A DNA stretch of 38,977 nt from Synechococcus sp. (GCA_051439605.1 JBFRWN010000103.1:1-38977), one strand, 5' to 3'. Counted from the stretch's first letter, positions 1,688 to 34,789 are shown. Notes: generated from the sequence alone by a model not told the origin. Numbers and translations are program-made.

Positions 1688-3118
1688 TTATTTCAATCGG
1701 TTTTCCTTGGCATACTCCCTCCGGATACCTTCAGAGAAGTCAGCTTGTCGCAGAACGGTTTCATCTCGGGAGATTGCCTTTAGGCAAGCAAATCGGATCG
1801 CGTTCATAATCGTTCCACCACTCATTTCGTACTCGTTAGCCATTTGGTTGAGATCTGCTCCAGGTTCTAAGTCAGCTGTATCGGGTAGACCTTTTTTCCA
1901 AATCAAGCGACGTTCACCCTGACGGGGCATGGGGAAATGGATGATTTGCTCGAAGCGGCGCGAGAAGGCTTCATCTACATTGTTGGCCAGATTCGAGGCT
2001 AGGATGACTAAGCCGTCGAAGGTTTCTACCCGTTGCAAGAGAAAGGATACTTCTTGGTTAGCGTAGCGATCGTGGGAGTCACGCACCTGGGTGCGTTTAC
2101 CGAAGAGGGAATCGGCTTCGTCGAAAAACAAAATCCAGCCTTTGTGTTCTGCTTTATCGAAAAGGGTGGCTAGGTTCTTTTCGGTTTCGCCGATGTATTT
2201 TGAAATCACCATAGACAAATCTATTTTGTAGACTTCTCGCTGGGTTGCTTTACCTAATAATGTGGCAGTTAAGGTTTTTCCGGTGCCTGGCGGTCCGCAG
2301 AACAGGACACGACAGCCTGGGCGCAGTTTTTTGCGCATGTTCCATTCGTCCATCAATACCTGTTCGTTTTGCAGCCAGTTCTCTAGTTCTTTGATTTGGC
2401 TGAGGGTGTGGCTGGGCAAGACCAGATCGTTCCAGTCCATGGCGGTTTCTAGTCTTCGGGCCGGAAACTGGAAACTCATGCGCGGTGGCCGGACTTTGCC
2501 GGTTAAAATGCGCTCAGCATACTCGGTATCGATAACTAAGCGACCGCTCATGGGGGGGTCTCCCTCGGGGGCGTCTTCGAGGGAAATGATGCCTTGCTGA
2601 ACTAGGGGGTGGTCACCCCAGAGCTGGGCTAGCCAGTAGAGGCGGGCTTCGAGAACGTCGCCTGCGAGCAGGAAAAGAGCGGTGTCGCCGGTAGGTAAGA
2701 AGCCTCGATGCTGGCGGCCGCGTATGCCCCCAATCCGGGGGAAATCTCCGGCTTGGGGCAAAACACTTTGAATCAGGCGATCGAAGAAGTCTGGCTGAAT
2801 CCAAGGAACAAGGGCTAGGAGGAGGAGGAGTTGGGAGTCGGCATCTAGGTGATAGTCGCAGATAAAGCAACTGTAGGGGTCATCTCCGCTGCAGGGGGGG
2901 AATTGGAATGTTTCTTGGTTCGGAGGAGCCTGGTTAGGGTCGCCGAAGGAAATCCTCAATCTTTGAGTTAATACCTTTTCTAGAACAGTGATCGCTTGGG
3001 TCAAATAGGACAATTGCCGTGTTATGGCGGATGAAAATTTGCTAAGTGTAACCATGGGGTAACCTCTACCATCGACTCCTGAAAGTAAACTCATTAAGCG
3101 AGATTTCAGTGTCTGCAT
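1688..3118 (-). CDS. eCIS-associated AAA+ ATPase (Afp15/Pvc15-like)
   Basis: Walker A GPPGTGKT, pore loop SKYIGETEKN, Walker B ILFFDEAD, DRYANQEVSFLLQR motif and arginine finger FSRRF. True start may be the ATG at 3055. Confidence 0.93.
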   Translation of the reverse strand: MQTLKSRLMSLLSGVDGRGYPMVTLSKFSSAITRQLSYLTQAITVLEKVLTQRLRISFGDPNQAPPNQETFQFPPCSGDDPYSCFICDYHLDADSQLLLLLALVPWIQPDFFDRLIQSVLPQAGDFPRIGGIRGRQHRGFLPTGDTALFLLAGDVLEARLYWLAQLWGDHPLVQQGIISLEDAPEGDPPMSGRLVIDTEYAERILTGKVRPPRMSFQFPARRLETAMDWNDLVLPSHTLSQIKELENWLQNEQVLMDEWNMRKKLRPGCRVLFCGPPGTGKTLTATLLGKATQREVYKIDLSMVISKYIGETEKNLATLFDKAEHKGWILFFDEADSLFGKRTQVRDSHDRYANQEVSFLLQRVETFDGLVILASNLANNVDEAFSRRFEQIIHFPMPRQGERRLIWKKGLPDTADLEPGADLNQMANEYEMSGGTIMNAIRFACLKAISRDETVLRQADFSEGIRREYAKENRLK

Positions 3119-3326
3119 AAAGCAAACGGATCGGGTTTACTGGAGATACATCAAACCTATCTTTCCCTAAGGCTCTGTTGAGATTTGGTTTGAACGGGCT
3201 CGAAATGGAGTACTAAACTGATGTGTTTATCGTATCTATTAAAGGTGACCCTTTAAAGCCTACGATTCTGTTTTTTCAAGGTTAACTTGCCTGTCCTTTC
3301 GCGATCGGGGCTGAGTTATCCATTGC

Positions 3327-4604
3327 TTATAACTCGAACTCATTTTCTACCTTGGTCAAGGCCTCATTGGGCGAGACGTCGCCGTAGATAACGGCCATGA
3401 TGCCAGGCAGATATCGATCCACTATTGCGATGTTGGTGTAGACCACCTGTCGAACTAGGGTTGTACTGAGGCGATCGCCTTCGACGTCAATGCTGGTTTT
3501 GTAGTGAATTTCGCCGCTGTCCAAGTCCATCTCGAAGTTGCCGATCGTGATGCCGTAGTTGACGCGGGTGAGGAATTCGGCCATGGCTAGCCGCTGTTTG
3601 TCTGGGACGTTGACGGGGCAGAGGGAGTAAAATACGAATTCTTGCCGTTCTTCATGGGTGATGGCATAGCAGGTCCATTGGCCGTTTTCGCCCTGGAATG
3701 CTAGCTGGAGTGAGGTCTTGCCTTCAACTTGGGCAATAGGCCATTTGTTGGTTTTAAAAAAGCTGACGACTGTTTCAAATATTTCTCCACCTGAGGAGTC
3801 CCAATCGGTTGCAGTGACATCATCGGTTAAGTTCTGGAAAACTCTGGTAATTTCTTCTACATGTTCGTCTGAGGCTTCTTGGAGGGCTTTGGAAAAGTTG
3901 GCTTCAACCCATTCTGCGAAAAAGTCAGCTATGCCTGCGGAAATTTGTTCGCCAGAGGTGGCTACCTTTTGCAGGATTGAGGGATTAATGTGAGACCAGA
4001 AAGTGCTGTAGCCAGTTTCTGTGTCTCCTTGTTGCTGTTTGACAGAGAGGCAGAGCCAGCTTTCAGTGTGGAGAAGTGGATCGATGGTTGCCTCGGTGGC
4101 TCTGGGTTGGTGAGATTCTATTTGATTGGGAACTTCGATAGTAGGTTCGCTCAGGGGAATTTGAGATTGGGAAGTGTCTACTTCTTGCTCGGGAACGCGG
4201 GGAGTTTCTGCTGGCTCTGTTTTCGGGCAGGGAAGTAGATCTTTTAACTGTTGCTGACTGAGATTGAGGAGGTGGGACGCGGCTTCCTCGGCATTGGTGG
4301 CGTTTGCAAAGAGGCGGGGAAGGAGGTCGGGGTGTAGGGTGACTTCAAGCTGGATGTTGGGTTCGGGAAGGAAGTCGCGGCCTGTGAAGGGGCCTCGAAT
4401 TTCGTCCTTGAGATTAAAAAGGCCTTGGGTATCGATGTGGTAGTAGAGATTAGGAGAGAGCAGGAACGTGAGGCAACATTTAGTGAATTTTTCATCCTGT
4501 CGGCCCAAAATTATATCAATTGCATGTGTATGCAGAGAAAATCCTCCTGATACTCTAAAAAAAAGATTATTATCTAGATGATAGTGTTCGATTTTCGCTT
4601 CCAT
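3327..4604 (-). CDS. YbjN-domain protein (T3SS-chaperone-like fold at the C-terminus)
   Basis: C-terminal FQGENGQWTCY...FYSLCP...EFLTRVNYGITIGNFEMDLDSGEIHYKTSID matches the YbjN family; starts 10 nt after the toxin stop codon. Confidence 0.8.
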   Translation of the reverse strand: MEAKIEHYHLDNNLFFRVSGGFSLHTHAIDIILGRQDEKFTKCCLTFLLSPNLYYHIDTQGLFNLKDEIRGPFTGRDFLPEPNIQLEVTLHPDLLPRLFANATNAEEAASHLLNLSQQQLKDLLPCPKTEPAETPRVPEQEVDTSQSQIPLSEPTIEVPNQIESHQPRATEATIDPLLHTESWLCLSVKQQQGDTETGYSTFWSHINPSILQKVATSGEQISAGIADFFAEWVEANFSKALQEASDEHVEEITRVFQNLTDDVTATDWDSSGGEIFETVVSFFKTNKWPIAQVEGKTSLQLAFQGENGQWTCYAITHEERQEFVFYSLCPVNVPDKQRLAMAEFLTRVNYGITIGNFEMDLDSGEIHYKTSIDVEGDRLSTTLVRQVVYTNIAIVDRYLPGIMAVIYGDVSPNEALTKVENEFEL

Positions 4605-4614
4605 AACCTGTTAG

Positions 4615-7600
4615 TTAAAATTTCTCCTTAGCCTGCTCGCGAAGATCGTTTAGTTCTTGCCACTCTTCACTATCTTCATCAAAGAATTCCATCATCTCGC
4701 TAAGCAGACCGAATATAGTTTCAGCAGAGTTAGGACTTAAATCAGATCTATCAAATCTCCCTTCTGGGGGTTGTTTCCCTTCTGGAGGCTGTTTCCCTTC
4801 TGGAGGCTGTTTCCCTTCTGGAGGTTGTTTCCCTTCTGGAGGCTGTTTCCTCTCTGGGGGTTGTTTCCCTTCTGGGGGTTGTTTCCCTTCTGGAGGCTGT
4901 TTCCCTTCTGAAGGCTGTTTCCCTTCTGGAGGCTGTTTCCTCTCTGGGGGTTGTTTCCCTTCTGGGGGTTGTTTCCCTTCTGGAGGCTGTTTCCCTTCTG
5001 GAGGCTGTTTCCTTTCTGGAGGCTGTTTCCCTGCTGGGGGTTGTTTCCCTGCTGGGGGTTGTTTCTCTTCAGGAGGCTGTTTCCCTTCTGGAGGCTGTTC
5101 TCCTTTTCCTTTGGGAGGTTGGCTGAGCAAGCACTTCATGAGACGTTTAATCACAAATTTTCCAGAATCAGACTTGCTGCAACCAAGATGTTCTTTAATT
5201 TTCTCAAGAGAATATTTTTCGTGATTAAAAATTTCGAGAACTAGTTCAACTTGTCTCTCTGTGGCTGGCTCGCCAGGTACAAATTCAAATTTTGATAAAA
5301 CATCTTTTTTGACTGTATTGATATTTTTTTTCTCCCATTCTGACCTCAAATCACTCAGCTCTTTTTCGTTTGATTTACCATCATTAGGTAGGTTGCATGG
5401 AAACTCTTTCTCATCAAAGCTACAAGCGCCGCCTGCTGAAGCTGCAATTGTAGATAGTCCTGCTAAATCGAGAGCCTCCTTAAGTATTGTTTGATACCAC
5501 GAGCCTAGTTTAGAATTTAAGAGCTCACATACTTTTTCGTTGATTAAATCTTTGAACTGCGAAGTTCTTGCAACCAAATCAATTACTAAGCTCATTGCAA
5601 ATTGACCGACAATTCCCCATAGACACCCCCAAGCAGGAGGAGAAATGCAAGAAATCGCCTGAAATACCCCTCTTATTGCCCATTCAAGACCTCCAATAAA
5701 ACCGAGAATTTCATTGCTACGATTAACAAATCTAAAGAACTTTTCAAAGCTACTATTAAAGTCTGCTAATGTATCTTCTAGCTTCTCTTTAGAACCTTCG
5801 ATTAAATCTATAACTGTATCAATTGGATTAAGCAATTCATCAGTAACATCATTGTTTTTAAGTTGTTCAAGAAAGTCATTCATGACTTTATCCAGGATTG
5901 CATTCATACAACCTGAAAAAAGTTTATATGCATGCCCAATTAATTGTCCAAAGCCTATCTTTGCAGCCTTAATAAGGACATTGAATACACGGCGCTTCCA
6001 ATTTCCAAGCCCTGATTTATATTTTTTAATGCCCGTTACTCGTTTCTTGAATTGCTTGAACCTATTTGCCAGGCATTTAAAGAAAGCTTCAACTTTCCCC
6101 AATACTCTACCAAGCTTAAATCGGAGTGAACCAAGTTTATCGCCTAATTTTCCGCTCCACAACCTTATTTTCTTAATATCTCTAACTGAGGCATCAATCT
6201 TTTTACTTTTGATGCCATTAATGCCTAATTTGCTATCAATTTTATGCCGCTTTATGACACTCCGAATATATCCCTTTTCACTCTCTAGAATTTTCTTAGG
6301 GCCTGGGGATTTTCCAACAGGCTCCTTGCCATCTATCCAGCCCTTTCTAGCCGTTTTCCATTTTGCTTCTGCAGACTTTGACCATTCCTTGTTCGGGGGA
6401 GCATCTGGACATTTACTAGCTTTTGCTTGAATGAATAAATTTTCTGATATAGCTTTCTGATCACTCTTTTTGAGTTGAATGTTAAATGTAGGAGGGCCAG
6501 GACGAGGCTTCAAAGCTGTTGGTATGGGTTTCCGTTTCTTGCTTGCTTTTGATGAAACATTCTCTTCTAATTTAGATAGCTGCTCCTTAAGCTCGAGTGG
6601 CTCCTGCTCCCCACTATAGGGACTTTGAAGCAGGAAATATGTATACATACCATTTGGTAATCTATAAAGCCAAAGGCGGTCATAGAGCTCGTCGTCCCCA
6701 GTTTTAGTTTTTTTCTTTGGTTTAAGAAATTCAGCTAGCTCAGGAGCCTTTCGTGTAAGCTTTAACTTTTTCGCCAAGGTACGTGTTTTTTCGTCAAAAG
6801 AAGCTAGGTTCTTTCGGGCTTTATTGTAATTTAGTACATCTGGAATCTCAATATCTACAAGCTTTCTTCCTGTACTATTTGAACGAGTGGCATTATTGCT
6901 TTGTGTGTTGACTTGATTGATAAATTTTTCAAATCCTATTATATAATTATCTATCTGAAGCGTTCCAGACCCAACAGATTCAGCTGTTTTAAAATCTGTC
7001 TTGAAGAGAGGCTTGATTTCTCCAACATAAAAACTCTCAGGAAAGTCATTACTCCACTTACTCCCTTTTCCACACTTTGGTCCAAGCTTCGGATTTCTTG
7101 CTGATTCTATATTTCCTACTCGAGGTGGTTTTTCATAGAAAAAGTTTTCATCCTTGGAAATACAGTTTCTGGGTTTTGTTTTGTCAAAATAGTTCTTTGC
7201 CCTAACACCAGATACAATATATTCTTCTTTACTCTTATATAAATCTGCAAAGCCCACTAGATTGTGCTCAGGTCTTCCTTTTCTATGTGCACCTGGGATT
7301 GGAACCTCCGTCATTAATCCCTTATTTTTAGGCTCCTTTACAAGTACGCTCTCTATATTATTATGTGCCCAGGTTCCAGTATATCTTTTGTCTTCATTGA
7401 CCGAGAAACGCTGAAGATATCCATCTTTTTGTGAGATAGGATCTTGTATTGCTCTAATACCTGTCTGCTGAACTACATGCGAAAGTTCATGTGCTAATAA
7501 TTGATCGCCACTAAAGGTGCCCGGTTGATATTTATCTGATGCGAAGTAGATATCTAGACCTGTAGTAAAGGCATATGCATGAAGGGCTTTGGTAAGGTTA

Positions 7601-8697
7601 TTTGCTTCAGCATCAATATGCACGCGAACCTTGTTGAAATCAACACCAAACTTTGTCTCCATCAATTGGCGAGTTGATTTTGGTAGTTTAGTCCCTTTGC
7701 CTTTTTCTCTTAGAACCCGATGCTCAATATCATTTACATCTGAGTATTGTGAAGTAGAATATTTATGATTTAGATCGATTAACTTCAGCTTTGTTTGAAT
7801 CGCTGTGCTCTCTTCTTCTGGATCAATTTGCCCTTGAATAGTAGAGAATGTTTGACCGTAATTAGATTTTGGTTGAACTCTTTTATTTTCTTCCTCTCCT
7901 AAGACTGGTCCCGTTTGGATCTGTGCAAGAGGTGTAATTTCACTTGCCAACGGTTTTATTTTAACCATACCTTCGTTTTCATTTGGATAGCTCTGCCGTT
8001 GCATTTGGGGCTCTGACATCTGCATCACTTGATCCGCAACACGATCCGCTTCCTGCTCATATTTATCATTCGGCTGCCCAATCTTCAGCTTTGGCTGAAC
8101 AATGCCTAGTCCAGCTTTTTCCTCCTTTTCACAGCTGACACATTTACGCTGAATTAAAGGTAAGCCCATGTCTGCGAGAGGCTTAGTTTGAACAGTATCA
8201 TCAGTCTCCTCTTCAGCTCCCTCTGATTCAGCTTGTTTCTGAACTAGCGGTTTAATCTGACCCGCCACCTGCTTAGATTGAATGAGTTCCGGAGCTTCCT
8301 CTTCTGCCTCATCATCCATCCGTCGCTGCAACGCTGGTGCTTTATTTGGAATTACCTTTTTAGCTATTGGGTCTGCCTTTTGCTCATGGAAATTACTTGG
8401 CGGAGCGAGCTTTAACTGGGTTTGAATTGTAGTTTTAGAGTTATGCTCCGAAGGTGGAAAGGGGGCCTCGCCAGCAGAGTATTGATGGCTTTCCTGTTCA
8501 GAATCATACTCTTGCGCCTGTACTTCTTCTAGCTCTTTCCGGTCGCCAACTTCGCGCTTCGGTAGAACAGTAGTGATTGAGGGAGAGGCTAGAGCAGAGA
8601 AAAAAGGTGCTGTTTCACTCTCATGCGCCGTTTTTGAGAAAAAAGGTCGGCTCGTGTGGTTTTGCGAAGATTGTTGATGGGTATGGGTGCTCAACAT
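4615..8697 (-). CDS. DUF4157 (eCIS core domain) polymorphic toxin/cargo: leader repeats, DUF4157, REase-like nuclease, hydrophobic helical domain, QPPEGK repeats
   Basis: KLKIGQPNDKYEQEADRVAD and METKFGVDFNKVRVH...AYAFTTGLDIYF...LLAHELSHVVQQ (DUF4157). GTWAH...EVPIPG...ADL...EIKP...QIDNY pattern follows. ATG at 8697 preferred over the TTG at 8715. Confidence 0.85.
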   Translation of the reverse strand: MLSTHTHQQSSQNHTSRPFFSKTAHESETAPFFSALASPSITTVLPKREVGDRKELEEVQAQEYDSEQESHQYSAGEAPFPPSEHNSKTTIQTQLKLAPPSNFHEQKADPIAKKVIPNKAPALQRRMDDEAEEEAPELIQSKQVAGQIKPLVQKQAESEGAEEETDDTVQTKPLADMGLPLIQRKCVSCEKEEKAGLGIVQPKLKIGQPNDKYEQEADRVADQVMQMSEPQMQRQSYPNENEGMVKIKPLASEITPLAQIQTGPVLGEEENKRVQPKSNYGQTFSTIQGQIDPEEESTAIQTKLKLIDLNHKYSTSQYSDVNDIEHRVLREKGKGTKLPKSTRQLMETKFGVDFNKVRVHIDAEANNLTKALHAYAFTTGLDIYFASDKYQPGTFSGDQLLAHELSHVVQQTGIRAIQDPISQKDGYLQRFSVNEDKRYTGTWAHNNIESVLVKEPKNKGLMTEVPIPGAHRKGRPEHNLVGFADLYKSKEEYIVSGVRAKNYFDKTKPRNCISKDENFFYEKPPRVGNIESARNPKLGPKCGKGSKWSNDFPESFYVGEIKPLFKTDFKTAESVGSGTLQIDNYIIGFEKFINQVNTQSNNATRSNSTGRKLVDIEIPDVLNYNKARKNLASFDEKTRTLAKKLKLTRKAPELAEFLKPKKKTKTGDDELYDRLWLYRLPNGMYTYFLLQSPYSGEQEPLELKEQLSKLEENVSSKASKKRKPIPTALKPRPGPPTFNIQLKKSDQKAISENLFIQAKASKCPDAPPNKEWSKSAEAKWKTARKGWIDGKEPVGKSPGPKKILESEKGYIRSVIKRHKIDSKLGINGIKSKKIDASVRDIKKIRLWSGKLGDKLGSLRFKLGRVLGKVEAFFKCLANRFKQFKKRVTGIKKYKSGLGNWKRRVFNVLIKAAKIGFGQLIGHAYKLFSGCMNAILDKVMNDFLEQLKNNDVTDELLNPIDTVIDLIEGSKEKLEDTLADFNSSFEKFFRFVNRSNEILGFIGGLEWAIRGVFQAISCISPPAWGCLWGIVGQFAMSLVIDLVARTSQFKDLINEKVCELLNSKLGSWYQTILKEALDLAGLSTIAASAGGACSFDEKEFPCNLPNDGKSNEKELSDLRSEWEKKNINTVKKDVLSKFEFVPGEPATERQVELVLEIFNHEKYSLEKIKEHLGCSKSDSGKFVIKRLMKCLLSQPPKGKGEQPPEGKQPPEEKQPPAGKQPPAGKQPPERKQPPEGKQPPEGKQPPEGKQPPERKQPPEGKQPSEGKQPPEGKQPPEGKQPPERKQPPEGKQPPEGKQPPEGKQPPEGKQPPEGRFDRSDLSPNSAETIFGLLSEMMEFFDEDSEEWQELNDLREQAKEKF
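4756..5097 (-). repeat. 18-bp in-frame tandem repeat, 19 units, encoding QPPEGK and variants
   Basis: Units such as tttcccttctggaggctg on +; I count 19 hexapeptide units in the translation. Confidence 0.95.
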
Positions 8698-9307
8698 TGG
8701 AAGGCAATGTGTCAATAGACCTGAAACTAGCCTGGGCTCTGTATACCGGTAACCGATACTAATTCTCGCTCTAGAGCCTTACATCTGGAATCGCTTGAAT
8801 TTATAGATAAGAGATGGAGCTAGTAAGGGGATAGGAAAAACAAAATATTGTTTAACCCGCCCCTAAACGATTAAGCGGCAGAACGTAGTGGTTCATTCTT
8901 TAAAAAATAACACGATACACGATGAACTGAACGTTATCGTAAAAGATCTAAATAGACACACGCACTATCTAACGCTTAGAACTTAATAATTTAGATTTTG
9001 AGCTTTAACTTGATTGCAAATCAAATACCTTCAGGAAAACCTTTAGATCTATATTGAAAGCATCTCGAATTTGGAGCAGCTCGATTATTATTAATGGCTG
9101 ATCTAAATTCTCGACACAAAGCTGAGCTATTCAATGATTCCAAGCAAAGAGCTTGATGATTACGATGTCCTTCTCCGCCTCAACAAAACTATTTCCTATT
9201 TCTATAAAATCCATAAGTCACTTGGAGCTACGTATGGGAAGGAAACTTATATTCTTGAGCAATTAGTAGGCTGTTTATAAGCTGAATAAAGGATTGTGAA
9301 AATATCA

Positions 9308-20192: not shown

Positions 20193-20208
20193 TGGGAACC
20201 TACACCGC

Positions 20209-25109: not shown

Positions 25110-25116
25110 AGCTGTA

Positions 25117-25407: not shown

Positions 25408-25488
25408 GGGTTCATCGCTCCTGTTTCGACTCAACAAAAAACATTTCAATCAACGGGATATACAAGGTTGTAAAAGACAAAGAAAAGA

Positions 25489-27998: not shown

Positions 27999-28172
27999 TT
28001 ATCGCTCCCCCCTATCTTCCAACACACGCAGTACCTCCTGGACACAGGTGCGAATCATATCGTCATGACTACTACTGCTCGCTGTATTTGGAGATTCTTG
28101 GTTGTTCTCTGAACAGTCATCAGAAGAATCGACCTGCGCACGGATTACCATTTCACGAATTTCAATGGGCAT
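27999..28172 (-). CDS. small DUF5908-type protein (Afp6/Alg6-like plug), 57 aa, absent from the ORF track
   Basis: Hand translation: MPIEIREMVIRAQVDSSDDCSENNQESPNTASSSSHDDMIRTCVQEVLRVLEDRGER*. It fills the gap between the tube initiator and LysM genes. Confidence 0.88.
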   Translation of the reverse strand: MPIEIREMVIRAQVDSSDDCSENNQESPNTASSSSHDDMIRTCVQEVLRVLEDRGER

Positions 28173-28180
28173 GATATTAC

Positions 28181-28684
28181 CTAGAAACTAATACTTGCAC
28201 TAGCAGACAAACCCGCAGCGGCATCGAGAGCAATACTGGCAGGATCGTAATATTTGAAGTATTGATAACTGAGGGCAAAAGTTTCGACTACAATTTCATT
28301 ATTCATAGAGTTAAAACCACTGATTTCCAGCCGTTTTGGAACCGCATTGACTACATACCAGTTGTACAAGGGTATGTGATCGTTATTGAGCAATGAAATC
28401 ATCAGATTTGTAGGCTTATATTCAAAGTTTTCCATTGCTTGGCGTGCCCAGTGCAATACTCCCGATCCCAGAAACTTACCTCGCTTTAGTACCAGTTCGC
28501 CAAACTGCAATTTCTTTGGCAACTGATGGGAAAACCGATTTTCCCCTCCCTCCTCCCAAGACTCAAATTCTGTGCTGACTGTCAAGCCACTCACCTCCTG
28601 AAACTGAATGTCGTTCGGAAACTGAACTAAAAGCTCGAATATAACTGAAAAATGAAAGCCTGGTTGTGGATAGTCAAATGCCAT
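28181..28684 (-). CDS. T4 gp19-like tube/tube-initiator protein (Afp5-like)
   Basis: YPQPGFHFSV, FQEVSGL, EGGENRFSHQLP, LVLKRG. Confidence 0.93.
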   Translation of the reverse strand: MAFDYPQPGFHFSVIFELLVQFPNDIQFQEVSGLTVSTEFESWEEGGENRFSHQLPKKLQFGELVLKRGKFLGSGVLHWARQAMENFEYKPTNLMISLLNNDHIPLYNWYVVNAVPKRLEISGFNSMNNEIVVETFALSYQYFKYYDPASIALDAAAGLSASASISF

Positions 28685-28689
28685 CGGTT

Positions 28690-29121
28690 TTACCCATTCT
28701 CCATGGTTAAACCCTCGTGGGCTAGGACGAGTGTTTCAACTGCCACATCCGTTGCAGTTGAATTTAAGTCAGTGGAAGTTACTTTAGTGGGCCAGGCATT
28801 TTTTACTTTCCAGACCACGACAGGCTCGTGACTTTCGTTCAATAGACTAATAGTAATGTCGCGACGTTCAATGGTGTTGAGGGCAACCGTATTCCACCAG
28901 TCGTAGAACTCGTTGTCTCCATCGAAAATACCTCGTTTTAAGGTGAGATCGCCGTAGGTTTGCATCCCTGGAAAGTTGGTTTTGTTGTACTCTAGGCTGG
29001 CACCGCCTCGATATTCCAACTTCTCGGTTGTGACTTCTAAACCTGTCACTTCGGTAAAGCTAATGTTAGTACCACCCCATTCAACTTGAAAATGAAATTT
29101 TGGTAGTGGATAATCAGCCAT
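28690..29121 (-). CDS. major inner tube protein, gp19 family (Afp1-like)
   Basis: YPLPKFHFQVEWGG, FTEVTGL, EYRGG, LTLKRG, RRDITISLLNESHEPV, LAHEGL; GAGG RBS. Confidence 0.96.
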   Translation of the reverse strand: MADYPLPKFHFQVEWGGTNISFTEVTGLEVTTEKLEYRGGASLEYNKTNFPGMQTYGDLTLKRGIFDGDNEFYDWWNTVALNTIERRDITISLLNESHEPVVVWKVKNAWPTKVTSTDLNSTATDVAVETLVLAHEGLTMENG

Positions 29122-29164
29122 AATTCAACCTCTTTTTAGTGTATAAATTAAGATGGAGTTAAGC

Positions 29165-31270
29165 TTAAGAAACCTGCATTTTGTGGGCGAATTTCAAAAT
29201 AATAAATTCAGCCGGTCGTACTACCGCCATGCCAATCTCAACAATCATGCGACCCTCGAGAACGTCTTGGGCAGTCATGGTTTCCCCCAAGCCAACTTTG
29301 ACAAAAAAGGCTTGCTCAGTTTTTGCTCCAGCTAAGGCACCAGCCCGCCACTGCAAGGTCAGAAAGTTTTCAATCATGGCTCGAACTCGAACCCAAGTAT
29401 TTGCATCGTTGGGTTCGAAAACAAATGGCTCAGTAGCCTTTTTGATAGACTCCTCTGCCATGTTGAAAAAACGCCTGACCGGTATGTAACGCCATTCGTT
29501 GTTGTTACCAGCCAGGGTACGAGCCCCCCACACTAAGGTGCCTTTGCCGGTAAATGAACGAATGGCATTGATGCTTTTGCCGGTGGTATGCACGTTCAAA
29601 TCGGCCTGATCGGCATCGTTAATTTTGACCGCTGGACCGACTACGTTGGCAATTGAGACATTTGCAGGGGCTTTCCAAACTCCTCGGGTGTGATCGACAG
29701 TGGCATAGATCCCGGCTACTGCCCCACTGCTGGGCAATATGCTCATGGTTTTCTGAACTTGTTCGAGCACAGCCTTCATGATTGGATGGTTTGAAAATAA
29801 CTCTTTCTCGGCTTCGCCTGCCAGGAATTCCACCACATCGAATAGGGTTAGGATTGCTGCAGATAAGGTGTCAAATAAATCCTGCAGGAGGACAGTGGCG
29901 TTTAGTGCATTTTCGAGAACAGTTGTTCCTAAGGAATCAGGAGGATTAGCTGTAATGTCTGCCGTTGTATCATTTGTACCTATCCAGTCGGTGCCGTCAA
30001 GAATTGGAGTATTGTCAGGAGTAGTACCGTAGGTTGTGTCGACATCGTCAGCAGTACGAGTAGTTGACACGGCAGTCAGAACCCCAGGGTTTTTCTCTAA
30101 TGCAATCAGACCAATAATTGCGTCGATCAACGTAGAATCAGACTGCACGTTTAAAAGTGCTTGTCGTAATTCAGTTGGCAACGTTGTATCGGGTTGGGTA
30201 GTAGCAACATCAGTAGCTTGAAAAGCTAACGCAATTCCTCTAGGTATAAGTAAGAGATTTAGGAATCGCTGACGCACAGTAGCGACTGGTGTAGACGGAG
30301 TTTCTCTTAGTTCCTGTAATAAGTTTGCAAAGTGATTCGGTAGGTCCGAAAAATTATCTCGAGCTAAGGTTAACGCTGTTGTGTTGGCTACAGTACTTAC
30401 GGCAGATACAAGCACTCCTACAGCATCGTCAGCTTCAAGAGTTGTTGTTACGAGGTCGTTCAATCTTATATCCTCTTCTGATGGATTCGGACCACCTAGC
30501 AAGGAGGCTAAATCGGTGATAGGGGTGTTATCAGAAGGATCGATAAAGCGGAGATGGCGAAAATGGACATCAGGGCGATAGATTGTTTGGAGCCAAGGGT
30601 AATATGCAGCACCATATTTCAGATTGTTGGTTCCAATAGAACCTCGAAAGTCACCCACTGGATCGTCGCCAATTGGAGGATCTATAGCTCCTTGAGACAA
30701 ATCCATGATGACAAAACGATCTTGCAGTTTCTCGCATTGATTAAGAGCCTCAATTTGTAAGTCACCGAGATCATTGGAAATCGAAACACCATCAGGAAAA
30801 ACTAATAAGGTAGGCTCATCAAAGCTTTCTAAACGAGTCAATCCATTTCGTAAACCTGTTGATAGATCGTCAACTACTCCTAATATCGGAGTGGAGCTAT
30901 AACTTCCGACTGAAACAATATAGCAAGGACCACCTCCATTAGCGTAAAAATGTCGTAAACAACCGTATAAGTAATAGCGATGTTCGTCACCATTACTGTT
31001 TCGGGGGAAAATAGTTCCTATCGCGTTATCTGTGCCAGGGTTACTAATTTGTACTTGGTAAGTGGCAGGAAGATAATCACCTCCGAAGAAAGTAATATAT
31101 TCCAGCAACGATTCAATCCGAGTTGGCTCCATTAATAAGCTATTTCCGTCGGTATCTTCCGCCTTGTCTGTATAGCCAACAAAAGCTGGAATAGCAGTTT
31201 CTACGGGCACAACCGATGGAGGAAATGTGCTGATGTCTTTAATGTAGACCCCAGGAGTTTTGTAGACCAT
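29165..31270 (-). CDS. contractile tail sheath protein 2 (long, with a helical insertion)
   Basis: YKTPGVYI...ETAIPAFVGYT N-terminus; GVWKAPAN...WGARTL...VFEPND...AVVRPAEFI C-terminus. Confidence 0.95.
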   Translation of the reverse strand: MVYKTPGVYIKDISTFPPSVVPVETAIPAFVGYTDKAEDTDGNSLLMEPTRIESLLEYITFFGGDYLPATYQVQISNPGTDNAIGTIFPRNSNGDEHRYYLYGCLRHFYANGGGPCYIVSVGSYSSTPILGVVDDLSTGLRNGLTRLESFDEPTLLVFPDGVSISNDLGDLQIEALNQCEKLQDRFVIMDLSQGAIDPPIGDDPVGDFRGSIGTNNLKYGAAYYPWLQTIYRPDVHFRHLRFIDPSDNTPITDLASLLGGPNPSEEDIRLNDLVTTTLEADDAVGVLVSAVSTVANTTALTLARDNFSDLPNHFANLLQELRETPSTPVATVRQRFLNLLLIPRGIALAFQATDVATTQPDTTLPTELRQALLNVQSDSTLIDAIIGLIALEKNPGVLTAVSTTRTADDVDTTYGTTPDNTPILDGTDWIGTNDTTADITANPPDSLGTTVLENALNATVLLQDLFDTLSAAILTLFDVVEFLAGEAEKELFSNHPIMKAVLEQVQKTMSILPSSGAVAGIYATVDHTRGVWKAPANVSIANVVGPAVKINDADQADLNVHTTGKSINAIRSFTGKGTLVWGARTLAGNNNEWRYIPVRRFFNMAEESIKKATEPFVFEPNDANTWVRVRAMIENFLTLQWRAGALAGAKTEQAFFVKVGLGETMTAQDVLEGRMIVEIGMAVVRPAEFIILKFAHKMQVS

Positions 31271-31335
31271 GATTGTCAGTATCCCGTAATAGTTAGACTC
31301 ATAAATCGATTAATTGAAGCTATCGTGGAGCGGAA

Positions 31336-32802
31336 TTAAGCTTCTTGCATTTTGTGAGAGAACTTCAAAATAATGAATTCGGCTGGGCGCACTACAGCCA
31401 TACCAATTTCTACATTCATGCGGCCTTCAAGAATGTCTTGGGCAGTCATGGTAACTCCTAAACCCACCCGTACGTAAAAGGCATCTTCGGGTTTGGCACC
31501 CGCCAACGCTCCAGCCCGCCACTGCAAAACTAAAAAGTTTTCAATCATTGCCTTAACCTTCACCCAGGTGTTGGCATCATTGGGTTCAAAAACAAAGGGC
31601 TCGGTAGCTTTTTTGACTGACTCTTCCACCATGTTGAAAAATCGCCGCACAGGCACGTAACGCCATTCGTTATCGTTGCCAGCTAAGGTGCGTGCTCCCC
31701 ATACCATGAATCCTTTCCCCGTAAAGAATCGCAAGGCGTTAACCGACTTTCCAGTAGGATGCACGTTCATATGGTCGTTTAGCCCGTTATCGATGTTCAC
31801 CGTTAGAGAACGAACCGAGCTCAAGCTGACATTTGCAGGTGCTTTCCAAACTCCCCGTGTTCTGTCGACAGTGGCATAGACCCCAGCTATGGCTGCGGCT
31901 GGGGGGAGGGTGACCGTGTAGCGATCTAGTTCTTTACGTACGTTTCCATAAATAGTGGGGTTAACTGTTTCGGGATTGTCCTCATTGGACTTTAGCTCTG
32001 ATAACGTTGCTCCATTATGCGGGCTCGGTCCATCATCACCAGGCCGTGGGAGTTGCGATATGGTGATACTATCTTCATCCCAGCGCCACGGTAATGTTGT
32101 GGAGATGTAGGGATGGTAAACGGCACCATACCTTAGGTTGCTGGTTCCTATGCCGTTGCGAAAGGCATCAATACCGTCTCTTCCTGGTTCGTCACCATCC
32201 CAAAGATCGCAAATTAAAAAACGATCTCCTAAACTCGCACATTGGTTTAGTGCCTGCACTAATACGCTGTGATAGCTAGCACGAGTACTTGCAACTTCAT
32301 CATCATCATCTGGGTCTGCAGCCATCCCTCTCAGATCGGAGAAAACAATTAAGGTAGGCTCGTCTTCCTTTGCTAATGCGTCCAGTCCTCCAGTGTGAGC
32401 CTCGACAATATTGGAGGTGACTCCACTAGCTAAGTAATCGCCGATGCTGATGACGTAGCATTTCCCCCCACCGTTGTCGTAGAAGTGGCGCAGGGCATAG
32501 GCCATTCGAAAGCGAGCTAGCGCCTCTTCATGGGGATCGGTAATGCCTCCGATGACGTTACTCTCCGCATCGACTGATACTTCAAAACCGCCACCAATCG
32601 GAGGTGCTTCGCCAAAAGTCTGCTCGTACTCCAGAAAGGACTCAATCTCGACAGCCCGGTTAATTAAGTCCTCCCCTTGATAGCGAGTGCTTTCGGTGTA
32701 ACCAATAAACGCCGGAATGGCCGTTTCAACCGGCACAACTGAAGGCGGAAACTTCGCAATCTCGCGGATATAGACTCCGGGGGTTTTGAAACTAGAAACC
32801 AT
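31336..32802 (-). CDS. contractile tail sheath protein 1
   Basis: Same sheath motifs as sheath 2; ATG at 32802 (MVSSFKTPGVY) preferred over the TTG at 32814. Confidence 0.95.
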   Translation of the reverse strand: MVSSFKTPGVYIREIAKFPPSVVPVETAIPAFIGYTESTRYQGEDLINRAVEIESFLEYEQTFGEAPPIGGGFEVSVDAESNVIGGITDPHEEALARFRMAYALRHFYDNGGGKCYVISIGDYLASGVTSNIVEAHTGGLDALAKEDEPTLIVFSDLRGMAADPDDDDEVASTRASYHSVLVQALNQCASLGDRFLICDLWDGDEPGRDGIDAFRNGIGTSNLRYGAVYHPYISTTLPWRWDEDSITISQLPRPGDDGPSPHNGATLSELKSNEDNPETVNPTIYGNVRKELDRYTVTLPPAAAIAGVYATVDRTRGVWKAPANVSLSSVRSLTVNIDNGLNDHMNVHPTGKSVNALRFFTGKGFMVWGARTLAGNDNEWRYVPVRRFFNMVEESVKKATEPFVFEPNDANTWVKVKAMIENFLVLQWRAGALAGAKPEDAFYVRVGLGVTMTAQDILEGRMNVEIGMAVVRPAEFIILKFSHKMQEA

Positions 32803-32810
32803 GACATCTC

Positions 32811-34193
32811 TCAAAGTGGGAGGTTAGACAGATGAATTTCGGAATACCACTGGGCATTTTGACGCCGAATTCGGTTAATACCCGGCTCAGGCAATAGCAC
32901 TTCTTCAGCCATTTGTGGAGGCTCCGTATTCTCGGCTTGTAGAAGAATACCGGTTGCAAAAAGGGTCAGCGGGCGGGGTAGAGCAGTGACAAGAATACGG
33001 CTGTTATCAGGGTCTTCAGGAGTAACATCAGCCCCGTTACCAACAGCTTGATCTGCCGGAAAATGGTATCGCCAACGGGTCGCTCGATTGAGAAATCGCA
33101 ATGTATAGCGGGGCGTACGCAGATTGCCACTGTCGTCTAAAAGGGCTAGTTCACCACTGCCCAATCCAATTTCGATGACTCCGAACCAGCCTTCTCGAAC
33201 GGCGGTGGAGTCCAGATAGAACTCAAATCCTAATTGAGGGATGATTGCCAAAGATTCATCGAGTACCTCTAAACGGTACAAACCTGGGACAATACCCGAT
33301 AGAACCACTTGAGCTGTTTCAAGATTGCCATTCTCAGCTTCATAATGCTGTTCCCAGAGTGCAACAGTCTCACCATGTCGAAAGATGCGCAATGTAGCCC
33401 GAGGAAGTGGCAAACTGCTCAGATCGATGTTGAAAAGATTCGGATGGATGGTGACTCGATCGGCTGATGTCACATACTGGTTGGCCAGGGTGTCAAACTG
33501 TTCCCACTGGGTATCGTCATCGAGGTCACTACCAGGTCCGAGATCGATCAAAGCTCGATAAATTCTGTTTTCAGCAAGAGCGATCGAGTTCTCTAAATAG
33601 CCTTCGCTAGCATCAAACGTGTCATTAGGAATGCGTTCCCAATCGGCAGCGACTGGAGCTACTGCAGATCCCGTATCGCGTAAGGCTCGAAAAAGGTTGA
33701 CGGTGTCCCCTGATGGTTCGCTGTAAACCTCGTCGGCTTGATAGGCTTGGCTAGGGTCGAAAATTGGGACTGGCACAGACAAAAACTGACCGCCAGTGGC
33801 TTCGTTACCCGATTGATTGCTAAAAAAGAAAAACCCTTGTGAATCGGAACTCAGAGCTGTGTAGTTGTAAAAGTAAGGATCGCTAACCTGTAACGCAAAG
33901 GCCAACTTGAAATTTAATGATAGAGGTATGGTCGGTCGTGATTCCGATGACTCTGGGTCAAGCTTGACAGCCACTAAAAATCCTGTTGCTGTAGTCTTGA
34001 ACAGCATTTGGTGGCCTGCAAGAACGCGAACTGTTGGGAGCGTTGGTGTGATGCTGAGAAATCTGGTACTTGAGTATTGCTCCATCACCCGAGCTTGATG
34101 TTCGAGGTTGAGTGCCTCATGCACAATTTCCCCACGATTTAAGCTGTAATCGTGCAGCACCTCAACTTCAAGTAAGACATCATATCGAGTCAT
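32811..34193 (-). CDS. conserved CIS protein, putative cap adaptor (Alg16B/Cis16B position) with two CBM5/12-like repeats
   Basis: Lies between DUF4255 and sheath; LLEVEVLHDY N-terminus and YTLRFLNRATRWRY...LPEP...YSEIHL C-terminus. Function is inferred from synteny. Confidence 0.7.
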   Translation of the reverse strand: MTRYDVLLEVEVLHDYSLNRGEIVHEALNLEHQARVMEQYSSTRFLSITPTLPTVRVLAGHQMLFKTTATGFLVAVKLDPESSESRPTIPLSLNFKLAFALQVSDPYFYNYTALSSDSQGFFFFSNQSGNEATGGQFLSVPVPIFDPSQAYQADEVYSEPSGDTVNLFRALRDTGSAVAPVAADWERIPNDTFDASEGYLENSIALAENRIYRALIDLGPGSDLDDDTQWEQFDTLANQYVTSADRVTIHPNLFNIDLSSLPLPRATLRIFRHGETVALWEQHYEAENGNLETAQVVLSGIVPGLYRLEVLDESLAIIPQLGFEFYLDSTAVREGWFGVIEIGLGSGELALLDDSGNLRTPRYTLRFLNRATRWRYHFPADQAVGNGADVTPEDPDNSRILVTALPRPLTLFATGILLQAENTEPPQMAEEVLLPEPGINRIRRQNAQWYSEIHLSNLPL

Positions 34194-34789
34194 TGCGTTG
34201 CATCCCGACCCGCAACTTCGATCTCGCTGATGAGACCACCAGCATCGAGTAATCGACGGTCTTGTAAGGTAATCAAGCGACCGCGATAGGCCGCAAAGGG
34301 CAGCTGCTTACCGCCAAGAGCTCCCCACAGGTGGTTAATTTCTTCAAGGCTAAGTGAGAGAAACTCCATTGTGAGAGAAAAATCTACAAAAGGAGAAATA
34401 TCAGACTCAGGTGAATTCCCAAGAGTAAATTTGCTTTTCCCCTGAAAAAAAATCATCACTTGGCTTAAACGTCTCAAAGCCGTTTCATAGTTTTGATAGT
34501 TGGCCGTCCATAGTAAGAACAAATTTACATGTAAGGGTACATTATGATAATTCACGTTATTGTTTGGTCTAAGAGAAAATGTTCGACCATTCTTGAGAGT
34601 ACTTTCTTCCTCTAGGTTCACTAAGCTCAAGACCAGATGATTCTGCAAATCTGCGCCAATACTATTTACATCAACCTGGGAAATATTACCCATGATTGCT
34701 ACATCGGCAGTGCCCTGTGGGCTTTCATCTTCCTGATGTATATACTGATTCAGCTGAGTCAATAAAAGAGATAATGCATCGGCAATCAT
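34190..34789 (-). CDS. DUF4255 tail terminator/cap protein (Afp16/Pvc16-like)
   Basis: LVLSLVNLEEE...LHVNLFLL...YETALRRLSQV..FFQ...LSLEEINHLWGALGGKQLP; AAAGGGGA RBS; ATGA overlap with the next gene. Confidence 0.93.
   Translation of the reverse strand: MIADALSLLLTQLNQYIHQEDESPQGTADVAIMGNISQVDVNSIGADLQNHLVLSLVNLEEESTLKNGRTFSLRPNNNVNYHNVPLHVNLFLLWTANYQNYETALRRLSQVMIFFQGKSKFTLGNSPESDISPFVDFSLTMEFLSLSLEEINHLWGALGGKQLPFAAYRGRLITLQDRRLLDAGGLISEIEVAGRDATQ

Follow-up and report, generated by a model that had tools for sequence, protein, structure and literature searches.

The question raised by this stretch of Synechococcus sp. DNA is whether its long series of minus-strand genes encodes an intact contractile injection system (CIS) and, if so, where the particle and its cargo would act. 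The window (the whole stretch of 38,977 nucleotides that was analysed) is the entire contig C103 of a 4.9 Mb genome in 143 contigs, in which 15 phycobilisome matches were found; the stretch occurs in sequencing runs of DNA only. The GC content of the contig is 0.477, as against 0.513 for the genome, and a transposase-like ORF adjoins the CIS locus.

Gene content and order of the CIS locus

The CIS locus comprises 21 genes, all on the minus strand (as are all features given below), and runs unbroken from position 1688 to 34789. The locus is intact, with a full and unbroken structural gene set, as the initial annotation had proposed: all 21 ORFs are open, and their translations showed neither frameshifts nor internal stops. 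Of the 20 large ORFs, 17 match at least one Pfam family, the exceptions being those of 460, 1182 and 283 aa. The structural families are Pvc16_N, two sheaths, two gp19 tubes, CIS_tube, VgrG, PAAR, gp25, Baseplate_J, Peptidase_S74 and CIS_TMP, while the others are VWA, eCIS_core (twice, once with Amidase_2), YbjN and AAA. The clustering of sheath, tube, VgrG-PAAR, gp25, Baseplate_J wedge, tape measure, cap and AAA+ genes in the Pfam results places the locus in the CIS superfamily. The order is cap, cap adaptor, two sheath paralogs, tube, tube initiator, a plug-sized ORF of 57 aa, Cis7, VgrG, PAAR, gp25, Cis11, Cis13, Cis12, tape measure, five accessory genes and the AAA+ ATPase; ORFs, Pfam and PDB matches agree with the order read earlier from cap to Cis14. 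The count of five accessory genes also stood, with the correction that the fifth is the ORF of 283 aa.

The cap protein Cis16A (199 aa; 34190..34789) matches Pvc16_N (Pfam, 1.6e-28), and the cap adaptor Cis16B (460 aa; 32811..34193), for which the Pfam search gave no family, was recognised by phmmer against the PDB through All3326 (1.6e-17) and the Algo2 cap adaptor (2.5e-16). The tube protein Cis1 (143 aa; 28690..29121) and the Cis5-like tube initiator (167 aa; 28181..28684) both match Phage_T4_gp19 (2.5e-46 and 4.4e-33), the role of the latter being assigned by position. The 57-aa entry of the ORF list (27999..28172) is placed at the Cis6 plug by position and size, and we take its N-terminus to resemble those of Afp6 and Pvc6. 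Cis7 (256 aa; 27225..27995) is a CIS_tube protein (9e-48); the LysM assignment also made for it is weak, the LysM-like tail matching under the cut-off (E 0.068).

The spike is formed by the VgrG-like Cis8 (579 aa; 25489..27228; Phage_base_V 1e-22, Phage_GPD 3.5e-12) and a PAAR tip (110 aa; 25117..25449; PAAR_motif 9.7e-23), followed by the gp25-like Cis9 (140 aa; 24705..25127; GPW_gp25 6.1e-22) and the baseplate protein Cis11 (1099 aa; 21403..24702; Baseplate_J 1.1e-4), which is 65% identical to its ortholog in G226, a genome from a different cyanobacterial family. The short fibre Cis13 (383 aa; 20209..21360) carries a C-terminal chaperone domain (Peptidase_S74, 7.4e-14), and its PDB matches are intramolecular-chaperone or fibre domains only. 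No transmembrane segment was found in it by hydropathy scan, with no 19-residue window reaching a mean hydropathy of 1.6. The baseplate protein Cis12 (at most 1182 aa; 16728..20276) matches All3315 (5.3e-59) and Algo12 (5.1e-47) in the PDB; since the listed TTG start would put it 68 nt into cis13, the true start probably lies downstream. No gene separates cis12 from that of the tape measure protein Cis14 (589 aa; 14969..16738; CIS_TMP 1.2e-100), which it abuts. At the far end stands the AAA+ ATPase Cis15 (476 aa; 1688..3118; AAA 1.3e-27), in whose translation the Walker A (GPPGTGKT) and Walker B (FFDEAD) motifs can be read, and which is 79% identical to its G226 ortholog.

Two sheath paralogs

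Pfam and PDB matches for both genes confirm that the locus encodes two sheaths. Paralog A (492 aa; 31336..32814) has Pfam sheath domains and its best PDB match, over the full length, in All3325 (2.8e-140); paralog B (701 aa; 29165..31270), likewise assigned by Pfam, matches All3325 (8.5e-148) and the AlgoCIS sheath (2.1e-140), and carries an insert of ~265 aa for which the PDB sequence search found no relative. The two are 72% identical in the C-terminal part and 42% in the N-terminal part, and A is 74% identical to its G226 ortholog. In a tree of the window and G226 sheaths, each paralog clusters with its G226 counterpart (94/100 for A, 100/100 for B): the genes were duplicated before the two loci diverged.

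Several sheath paralogs per particle are known from the clade Ia eCIS Afp and PVC (Afp2/3/4 and Pvc2/3/4), all of which are PDB matches of both window sheaths. Apart from the G226 orthologs, however, A and B are each other's closest relatives, so that their duplication is independent of that in Afp and PVC. Furthermore, Afp and PVC differ in having no cap adaptor, a long single-protein cap and cargo without DUF4157. One of the window paralogs may build a specialised layer, or both may co-polymerise.

Relationship to solved systems

By sequence similarity, the nearest solved systems are the tCIS of Anabaena sp. PCC 7120 and AlgoCIS, a clade Ib eCIS of Algoriphagus machipongonensis. The available part of the AlgoCIS description (PMC8894135) contains a short Cis16A with a separate cap adaptor, as here (Alg16A has 197 aa, compared to 199 aa), together with a plug-sized ORF, large Cis11 and Cis12 proteins, an AAA+ ATPase in the cluster, and cargo built from a leader (disordered in AlgoCIS), DUF4157 and a variable C-terminal domain. 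The AlgoCIS sheath, cap adaptor and Alg12 are significant PDB matches to window proteins. In contrast to the window, AlgoCIS has a single sheath gene, and VWA membrane, p283-like (see below) and YbjN proteins were not found in that part of its description (PMC8894135). No counterpart of its targeting fibre Alg19 was detected in the window.

The tCIS supplies the best PDB matches for the sheaths (All3325), the cap adaptor (All3326) and Cis12 (All3315), and its host is likewise cyanobacterial. According to the part of its report that was available (PMC8894136), it too has one sheath gene where the window has two, two DUF4157 proteins are encoded beside its cluster, and its Cis13 carries a membrane segment, whereas the window Cis13 has none and ends in the S74 domain. 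In the phmmer alignment of Cis12 with All3315, residues 13-164, 193-538 and 1095-1258 are the only ones aligned, leaving the tCIS Cis12 extension (All3315 residues 610-1100) without an aligned counterpart in the window protein. A Cis19 crown gene was not found at the locus, and the PDB searches run with window proteins gave no match to All3314. Eight of nine other cyanobacterial loci have a gene for 885-1714 aa between cis12 and cis14; judged by position only, its products may be Cis19 homologs. The likeness to tCIS noted earlier hence holds in sequence, but does not extend to its thylakoid-anchoring features, namely the Cis13 segment, the Cis12 extension and Cis19.

An exported VWA membrane protein

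The first accessory gene after cis14 (797 aa; 12534..14927) encodes a VWA protein (VWA_2, 1.2e-9; 39.2 bits against a cut-off of 27). It comprises a signal-peptide-like (Sec) N-terminus, an N-terminal domain, the VWA domain with its MIDAS motif, a beta-rich region, a C-terminal transmembrane helix and a 13-aa tail. The hydrophobic segment (residues 756-789 by hydropathy) and the signal-peptide-like N-terminus bear out its earlier designation as a membrane protein. The gene most likely starts at 14927, which gives this N-terminus. An alternative TTG start at 15146, which overlaps cis14, is less likely. Fifteen other homologs were retrieved from a large database, and across the 16 sequences the MIDAS residues (DxSxS, T, D) are D184, S186, S188 and T274, each at least 90% conserved, and the invariant D301. 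Homologs also stand directly after cis14 at the loci L012 and L030, and wider relatives have Invasin_D3-like matches.

With a cleavable-signal-like N-terminus, nearly the whole protein (~720 aa) is predicted to lie outside the cytoplasm, leaving a non-conserved tail of 13 aa for contact with a baseplate, and the PDB search found no similarity to solved CIS chains. It most likely does not belong to the particle. The Streptomyces coelicolor CIS offers a parallel in CisA, a single-pass membrane protein encoded with that system but outside its particle; as described in the available part of PMC12237407, the layout of CisA is nonetheless the reverse, with a cytoplasmic N-terminal region of 285 aa and a small outside domain. 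The least supported of our proposals is that the VWA protein might be an accessory on the envelope side that serves in adhesion, release or self-recognition.

Three predicted cargo proteins with a common leader

Cargo 1, cargo 2 and the 283-aa protein (p283), together with their G226 orthologs, have in common an N-terminal leader made of an FF-containing motif followed by a Q-R/K motif. Only three of the 3,903 genome ORFs of at least 150 aa match this pattern, all within the CIS locus; as the pattern was built from these three proteins, the scan speaks for its specificity and is no independent discovery. The DUF4157 protein of a second system in the genome does not have the pattern. In AlgoCIS, loading has been reported to require the N-terminal domain and the AAA+ protein Alg15, with DUF4157 dispensable and leaders system-specific (10.64898/2026.05.27.728243; PMC8894135, both as available in part). 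By analogy with the AlgoCIS proteins Cgo1 and Cgo2, the leader may act as a loading signal.

Cargo 1 and cargo 2 have the DUF4157 cargo layout of the Cgo1/Cgo2 type: the shared leader is accompanied by eCIS_core with its HExxH motif and a variable C-terminal domain. In cargo 1 (681 aa; 9308..11353; eCIS_core 6.4e-22, HEATH), this domain is Amidase_2 (Pfam, 1.8e-8; 35.2 bits against a curated cut-off of 26). Its translation contains a His and a His-x8-Cys motif (GHKEYNTSRSC), which we take to be the zinc ligands of Amidase_2, and the protein would be expected to cleave peptidoglycan. In cargo 2 (1366 aa; 4615..8715; eCIS_core 5e-28, HELSH), it is a PD-(D/E)xK-like domain (about 445-700), past which lie a Lys-rich and hydrophobic region and a (PPEGKQ)n repeat of 19 copies of an 18-nt unit. 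Residues 425-720 have 77 representative homologs, and 53 sequences show no variation at H451, E470, D491 and K568; E566 of the E566-x-K568 motif is outside this invariant list. The AF2 model of the domain has a pLDDT of 82 and a pTM of 0.83. In the fold search, the VIA list carries nuclease titles in at least 35 of its 50 rows; its highest Z, 6.5 (rmsd 4.1, 118 aligned), falls under the tool's noise range of 7-8. Foldseek gave nothing at E <= 0.001, and Pfam no match, for this domain. Cargo 2 would cut nucleic acid by means of it. The effector activities claimed at the outset are thus readable in both proteins, through Pfam in one case and through invariant residues, model and fold search in the other. 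No immunity genes are evident.

The predicted third cargo, p283 (11483..12334), has the leader motif and no DUF4157 core. Searches of Pfam, NCBIfam and the PDB gave no match, and a fold search with its AF2 model (pLDDT 69) found no relative above noise. It has 126 homologs, 46-75% identical across phyla (cyanobacteria, Pseudomonadota and Acidobacteriota, names as given by the sources), and one of them, P0127, carries an inserted DUF4157 core with a leader motif on either side. p283 is lacking at the 13 further cyanobacterial CIS loci that were compared, and at L012 an unrelated leader-only protein occupies its position. We propose that p283 is a third, conserved co-cargo, whose helical-hydrophobic and beta-rich parts may act on membranes.

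A long-form YbjN protein

The YbjN protein claimed for the locus is present (425 aa; 3327..4604), with a Pfam match over the cut-off (7e-7; 30 bits against 22), and its C-terminal part alone scores 31.4 bits. The YbjN fold may be chaperone-like, akin to that of secretion chaperones; a search of the PDB with the family profile found no chain. Of its 475 homologs, those bearing names are almost all cyanobacterial; YbjN homologs exist outside CIS contexts too. At 14 of 18 long-form loci in other cyanobacteria, a DUF4157 gene lies within ~6 kb, and at 13 of the 18 a large DUF4157 gene precedes the YbjN gene on the same strand, 6-1474 nt away. The host genome itself contains a second module of DUF4157, 152-aa and YbjN genes on contig C16. 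The effectors at the loci in other cyanobacteria do not have the C-terminal domain of cargo 2, and this speaks against a function in immunity; the protein is likely a chaperone or adaptor for large DUF4157 cargo.

Rarity of the gene combination

Among the cyanobacterial loci compared, only that of G226 likewise combines two sheaths with the membrane-protein slot and p283. Parts of the combination have been catalogued previously. VWA_2 is enriched in eCIS operons with an odds ratio of 8.0 (55 genes, 3 phyla; Geller 2021, PMC8213781, supplement file 4) and YbjN with one of 6.1 (14 genes); nine of the 14 YbjN gene rows, from the part of this source that was available, come from seven cyanobacterial species and Solimonas. 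Operon 10661 of Lysobacter capsici (PMC8213781, file 12) has Phage_sheath_1 twice and, ahead of the AAA gene, a VWA_2 gene of 2583 bp; its sheath-tube-sheath-tube order is unlike that of the window, and the likeness lies in catalogued family names only. The same catalogue labels VWA_2 an anti-eukaryotic toxin (PMC8213781), which does not agree with the signal peptide and membrane anchor of the window protein. The literature searched yielded no experimentally characterised locus with the same accessory content, so that the proposal of an uncharacterised variant holds in this narrower sense, though not as regards the enrichment of VWA_2 and YbjN or the pairing of two sheaths with VWA_2, which were already on record. 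The locus is a rare variant within known CIS diversity.

Mode of action

How would such a particle work? If it were anchored in a membrane, as in tCIS or type VI systems, the baseplate would be tethered by the C-terminal helix of the VWA protein (in G226, of its 759-aa counterpart), which would replace the missing crown/long-fibre gene. We regard this as unlikely. The membrane-protein slot right after cis14 is indeed conserved (window, G226:C1, L012 and L030), the large gene between cis12 and cis14 that most other loci possess is absent from both the window and G226:C1, and membrane segments in fibre proteins have been described before, in tCIS (PMC8894136, available in part). A published catalogue, in the part available (PMC12923769), also ties crown-type (eBAP4) fibres to VWA, PKD and Invasin_D3 modules, and Invasin_D3-like matches occur among the wider relatives of the VWA protein. 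Against this, the short, non-conserved tail is all that would reach a cytoplasmic baseplate, the protein is unlike any solved CIS chain, and the known Streptomyces membrane partner CisA has the opposite layout. Comparison with the cis12-cis14 slot proteins likewise gave no hmmsearch match at E <= 10 and an hhalign probability of 0.02.

That p283 is a conserved structural or assembly factor (e.g. of the tube lumen or baseplate), which owes its leader-like N-terminus to descent from a DUF4157 gene, seems to us doubtful. Its conservation across phyla, far above that of the neighbouring toxin domains, is unusual for a toxin and fits such a role as well as that of cargo, and its position beside the membrane-protein slot is fixed in the window and G226. 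Yet it bears the system-specific leader of both DUF4157 cargos, P0127 has the DUF4157 core in a cargo arrangement, L012 has an unrelated leader-only protein in its place, and the 13 other cyanobacterial loci compared do without it. A silent relic or prophage tail module, with no working injection system, is highly improbable. The locus was acquired horizontally, the VWA protein being found in none of 60 relatives (three same-genus genomes included) and p283 in none of 400 phylum genomes, and the lower GC content of the contig and the neighbouring transposase-like ORF likewise favour this reading; but every ORF is open, catalytic and MIDAS motifs are intact, and the sheath paralogs and accessory genes are 62-79% identical in G226. 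Furthermore, capsid, portal and terminase families are absent from the window ORFs, and the CIS-specific genes CIS_TMP, eCIS_core, Pvc16_N and AAA are present.

We therefore favour, as rather probable, a CIS of the cap-adaptor group. Its particle most likely assembles in the cytoplasm, and the AAA+ ATPase likely loads it with the three leader-bearing cargo proteins. An extracellular mode is the more likely one, because the three anchoring features of tCIS were not found, and the S74-domain fibre is consistent with it. The particle would then be released from the cyanobacterium and act outside the cell on other bacteria.

Architecture and type of the locus

Searches against Pfam and solved protein chains agree with the initial annotation, which had claimed an intact contractile injection system (CIS) with an AlgoCIS-like gene order: an unbroken run of 21 open frames, all on the minus strand from 34789 to 1688 and spaced by short gaps or small overlaps, carries the structural genes in that order, followed by five accessory genes and the ATPase. 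The window corresponds to the entire contig C103, which at 38,977 bp is one of 143 contigs in a 4.9-Mb genome; 15 phycobilisome-family matches identify that genome as cyanobacterial. A Pfam family was assigned to 17 of the 20 large ORFs. The structural ones are a Pvc16_N cap, two sheaths, two gp19-type tubes, CIS_tube, VgrG, PAAR, gp25, Baseplate_J, a protein ending in Peptidase_S74, and CIS_TMP; the others are VWA, YbjN and AAA proteins and a pair with eCIS_core (DUF4157), one of which also carries Amidase_2. Three proteins had no Pfam family. The first, of 460 aa, is a cap adaptor by its matches to the solved chains All3326 of the Anabaena thylakoid-anchored CIS, tCIS (1.6e-17), and Algo2 of the Algoriphagus machipongonensis system, AlgoCIS (2.5e-16). 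The second, of 1182 aa, matches Cis12 of tCIS (5.3e-59) and of AlgoCIS (5.1e-47), while for the third, of 283 aa (p283), no named relative was found. A 57-aa ORF occupies the plug position.

Rfam returned no match in the window, and a promoter and terminator scan gave a signal no higher than shuffled controls. Relaxed Pfam searches on sub-regions yielded nothing usable, and two ESM Atlas queries gave best scores of 0.80 each, which are leads only. The sequencing runs containing this stretch are four DNA runs from one marine sediment metagenome study, with no RNA run listed. Past the end of the ATPase gene, 85-1660 (+) contains three oppositely oriented ORFs (127, 188 and 206 aa); Pfam gave no match to them, nor did NCBIfam to the two scanned, and the last of the three has a hydrophobic stretch at its C-terminus.

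The best solved relatives of both sheaths are All3325 of tCIS and the AlgoCIS sheath. On this evidence and that of the separate cap adaptor, the locus belongs with AlgoCIS (PMC8894135) and tCIS (PMC8894136). The tCIS paper ties thylakoid anchoring to three features, namely a membrane segment in Cis13, an extension of Cis12, and a crown (Cis19) gene. In the window, no hydrophobic segment was found in Cis13, which ends in an S74 intramolecular-chaperone domain; Cis12 aligns with its tCIS counterpart All3315 at residues 13-164, 193-538 and 1095-1258, whereas the 610-1100 extension has no alignment; and no gene is present between cis12 and cis14. Since none of the three features was found, we infer that the particle is more likely to be released and to act outside the cell than to be anchored to thylakoids.

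In eight of nine other cyanobacterial loci (the fetched stretches containing both cis12 and cis14), this interval holds a gene for a protein of 885-1714 aa, which we take, by position only, to be a crown or long-fibre gene (L085:1747-4626, L093:1671-4349, L081:3435-8501, L009:1891-7035, L089:1609-4347, L011:15015-17897, L087:16253-18910 and L095:15135-18020). The first 320 residues of these proteins are mutually 20-51% identical, and none of the six scanned gave a Pfam match above cut-off. By contrast, both the window and G226:C1, the nearest related cyanobacterial locus, lack such a gene.

Two sheath paralogs

Identity between the two sheaths is 72% in the C-terminal 206 residues and 42% in the N-terminal 245. 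An insert of approximately 265 residues sets sheath B (701 aa) apart from sheath A; no relative of this insert was found by PDB sequence search. The sheath region was fetched for eight other cyanobacterial loci, of which G226:C1 alone carries a pair of sheath genes and the remaining seven a single one. In a tree of 12 sheath sequences, the A copies of the window and G226 group together (94/100), as do the B copies (100/100), so the duplication is older than the split of the two loci; judged from these sequences, both copies have been retained since. The proposal that two sheaths, a VWA protein, DUF4157 effectors and YbjN may together define an uncharacterised variant holds in the narrower sense that paper searches turned up no experimentally studied locus of this makeup; VWA_2 and YbjN in eCIS operons, and a two-sheath operon of Lysobacter capsici (supplement file 12), had already been catalogued (Geller 2021).

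The membrane protein after cis14

The gene directly after cis14, read from the start at 14927, encodes a protein that opens with a signal-peptide-like stretch and an N-terminal domain, continues with a VWA domain in which the MIDAS residues are conserved and with a beta-rich region, and closes with a C-terminal helix and a tail of 13 residues. It has only 15 other homologs in a large database, all unnamed. No sequence match was found in the PDB, and NCBIfam gave none for the accessory proteins, nor a sorting-signal model at the VWA C-terminus. A scan of genome contigs with the single VWA protein returned one 33-residue match, which was spurious. Metagenomes were scanned with the narrower of two alignments (A2), A1 being too diverse, and CIS genes adjoin the VWA homolog in three of 67 loci (L012, L030 and L044), with the homolog directly after cis14 in L012 (41% identity) and L030 (24%). 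The remaining full-length matches are weak and belong to surface proteins that carry subtilase, sortilin-like or outer-membrane-barrel fusions, so the wider module is not specific to CIS. In G226, the corresponding position after cis14 is filled by a 759-aa protein, whose resemblance to the VWA protein is limited to the signal peptide, the C-terminal helix and, at 29% identity, the first 170 residues.

Two labels for such a protein can be drawn from the literature. PMC8213781 classes VWA_2 among the anti-eukaryotic toxin domains that eCIS operons encode, and PMC12923769 reports crown-type fibres with VWA modules. We rejected a crown-type fibre for now: against the cis12-cis14 slot proteins of eight other loci, hmmsearch found nothing and hhalign gave a probability of 0.02. 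Neither label fits, because the protein is exported and membrane-anchored, and no similarity between it and crown or slot proteins could be detected. We favour an envelope-side accessory over a part of the particle or a baseplate anchor.

A common leader on three proteins

Both DUF4157 proteins, of 681 aa (cargo 1) and 1366 aa (cargo 2), have an HExxH motif and a long N-terminal region. In each of them, and in p283, this region carries FF-containing motifs followed by (I/V/L)Q(R/K/T), a pair that is also present in the G226 orthologs. A scan of the genome with this pattern returned these three proteins out of 3,903 ORFs of at least 150 aa, a result that speaks to specificity only, the pattern having been derived from the three themselves. 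It was not found in the DUF4157 protein of a second CIS of the same genome. According to a preprint (10.64898/2026.05.27.728243), AlgoCIS loading requires a disordered N-terminal domain and the AAA+ protein Alg15, while DUF4157 is dispensable, and leaders are alike within one system and not across systems. By analogy, the same loading logic most likely applies to the leader-bearing proteins of the window.

Cargo 1 ends in an Amidase_2 domain (Pfam, above cut-off). Residues 425-720 of cargo 2 have 77 representative homologs, mostly in proteins of 1000-1450 aa with the domain immediately after HExxH, and H451, E470, D491 and K568 are invariant across 53 sequences. The domain was modelled confidently (pLDDT 82, pTM 0.83). 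Foldseek returned nothing at E <= 0.001, and a fold search gave a best Z of only 6.5, with restriction-endonuclease-like nucleases by title in at least 35 of 50 rows. We read the domain as a putative PD-(D/E)xK-like nuclease, an assignment with support that falls short of proof. The cargo 2 gene has a GC content of 0.41 (0.377 for residues 425-1200) against 0.477 for the contig, and is preceded by an AT-rich gap of 592 nt (GC 0.363); this stretch (4615-9307) looks like a swapped-in cargo module. Close to the C-terminus, (PPEGKQ)n is encoded by an 18-nt tandem repeat at 4758-5099 (19 copies, 89% matches).

A large database holds 126 homologs of p283, at 46-75% identity and with no Pfam domain, from sources named as Leptolyngbya, Lysobacter, and Pseudomonadota and Acidobacteriota MAGs. 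In one of them (P0127), a DUF4157 core is inserted between the leader motifs. In L012, a high-GC metagenome contig with cis14 and the 41%-identical VWA membrane protein, the position of p283 is filled by a different leader-only protein: the gene next after VWA (3748-4668) encodes 306 aa with the same kind of FF...FF leader and an unrelated C-terminal part, and is followed by a DUF4157 gene. The p283 model (pLDDT 69) comprises a disordered leader, helices, one of them hydrophobic, and a beta meander. No match was found among PDB sequences or plasmids, nor with Foldseek at E <= 0.001; the best VIA hit (Z 7.2, rmsd 9.6, 109 aligned) and the membrane beta-barrels named in about 30 of 50 VIA rows are within the noise range of that tool. 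From its leader, we read p283 as a putative third cargo, one without DUF4157. The high conservation of p283 would be equally compatible with the rival view that it is a structural component.

Long-form YbjN and large DUF4157 effectors

The long form of YbjN has 475 homologs, the named ones almost all cyanobacterial, and occurs in 51 of 301 genomes of the class (9 of the 17 that are cis14-positive and 42 of the other 284). We chose 18 loci in which the match, or its open frame, pointed to the long form. A DUF4157 core lies within approximately 6 kb in 14 of these, and in 13 of the 14 it belongs to an ORF of 845-2401 aa upstream of YbjN on the same strand, 6-1474 nt away. VgrG stands just before the DUF4157 gene in four of these loci, with PAAR as well in two. 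These rows of VgrG, large DUF4157 effector and long-form YbjN are found in L102 (G135:C49), L103 (G117:C49), L107 (G250:C208) and L109 (G298:C12), PAAR accompanying VgrG in L102 and L107, and presumably resemble the spike-effector-adaptor islands of type VI systems.

The DUF4157 effectors adjoining YbjN elsewhere match cargo 2 in the leader and DUF4157 part only, so YbjN tracks large DUF4157 proteins whatever their toxin domain. This independence favours a chaperone or adaptor over an immunity protein. YbjN has been listed as enriched in eCIS operons (Geller 2021, supplement file 4), with at least nine gene rows from seven cyanobacterial species and Solimonas, counts from the eCIStem gene table being lower bounds. 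A literature search found no paper with both "YbjN" and "contractile injection", and a PDB search with the YbjN profile gave no match.

The second CIS of the genome, which is more distant, extends over at least three contigs and has its own DUF4157/152-aa/YbjN module. On C16 (56900-73926, L099), gp25-like and Cis11-like genes are followed by genes for a YbjN-like protein (432 aa), a 152-aa ORF, a DUF4157 protein (1091 aa), an AAA protein with a winged-helix domain (688 aa) and a 427-aa Pvc16_N cap; C6 (4018-7931, L100) holds a 569-aa sheath and three tube genes, and C96 (17500-26600) VgrG, Cis7-like and tube genes.

Distribution and acquisition

The closest locus, G226:C1, is from another family of the same class and shares the gene order, with core genes at 46-90% identity (lowest for cis14, highest for the tube; best tblastn piece per gene). 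A cis14 query found matches in 17 of 301 genomes of the class. The VWA protein was found in none of 60 relatives, three same-genus genomes among them, and p283 in none of 400 other genomes of the phylum; among 61 genomes around G226, p283 had a match in G226 only. Of the contigs of 10 kb or more, 96% have a higher GC content than C103 (0.477, against 0.513 for the genome), and a transposase-like ORF lies upstream of the locus. A 506-aa ORF at 35380-36900 (+), oriented divergently to the CIS operon, matched nothing in Pfam or NCBIfam; towards its C-terminus, the stretch ENLNSRLRNYF is reminiscent of IS-family transposases. Binning of the contig is supported by a flank gene with 70% identity to a gene in the same-genus genome G003. 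This GST-like gene is the only one that the contig has in common with G003 in the synteny comparison, and it lies at a contig end, so insertion boundaries cannot be drawn from G003. Judged from composition and distribution, the locus looks horizontally acquired.

Two pairs of database homologs have matching longest contigs: P0019 and P0140 (p283 homolog, 75% identity, and YbjN homolog, 64%; 48,235 bp for both), and P0009 and P0027 (VWA and p283 homologs; 51,528 bp for both). Because of these matching lengths, closer relatives of the entire accessory block probably exist.

Implications

The locus represents a rare sublineage of the cap-adaptor CIS group that seems to move horizontally, and it leaves the picture of what a CIS is unchanged. 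A bolder reading would describe a cross-phylum sublineage that has lost the crown or long-fibre gene and has a two-paralog sheath, whose particle is coupled to an exported, MIDAS-bearing membrane adhesin; p283 would always be co-loaded, and its hydrophobic helices and barrel-wall-like beta sheet would open the target envelope as a pore or translocator, admitting the amidase to the cell wall and the nuclease to the cytoplasm. We regard this combination as improbable.

Few contractile injection systems have been characterised so far, and these are under development as protein-delivery tools. The locus raises the questions of how a two-sheath arrangement of independent origin functions, what accounts for the recurrence of an exported VWA membrane protein beside the tape-measure gene, and what the conserved 283-aa family, with a fold lacking known relatives, does. 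Three points merit follow-up: the common leader on a protein without DUF4157, the association between YbjN and large DUF4157 effectors, and the membrane-protein slot after cis14. The link between long cyanobacterial YbjN and these effectors suggests that cargo handling includes a chaperone or adaptor step, for which we found no earlier description. With three proteins under one common, putative loading leader, one of them without DUF4157, the locus offers a compact natural case in which the sufficiency of the leader is directly testable.
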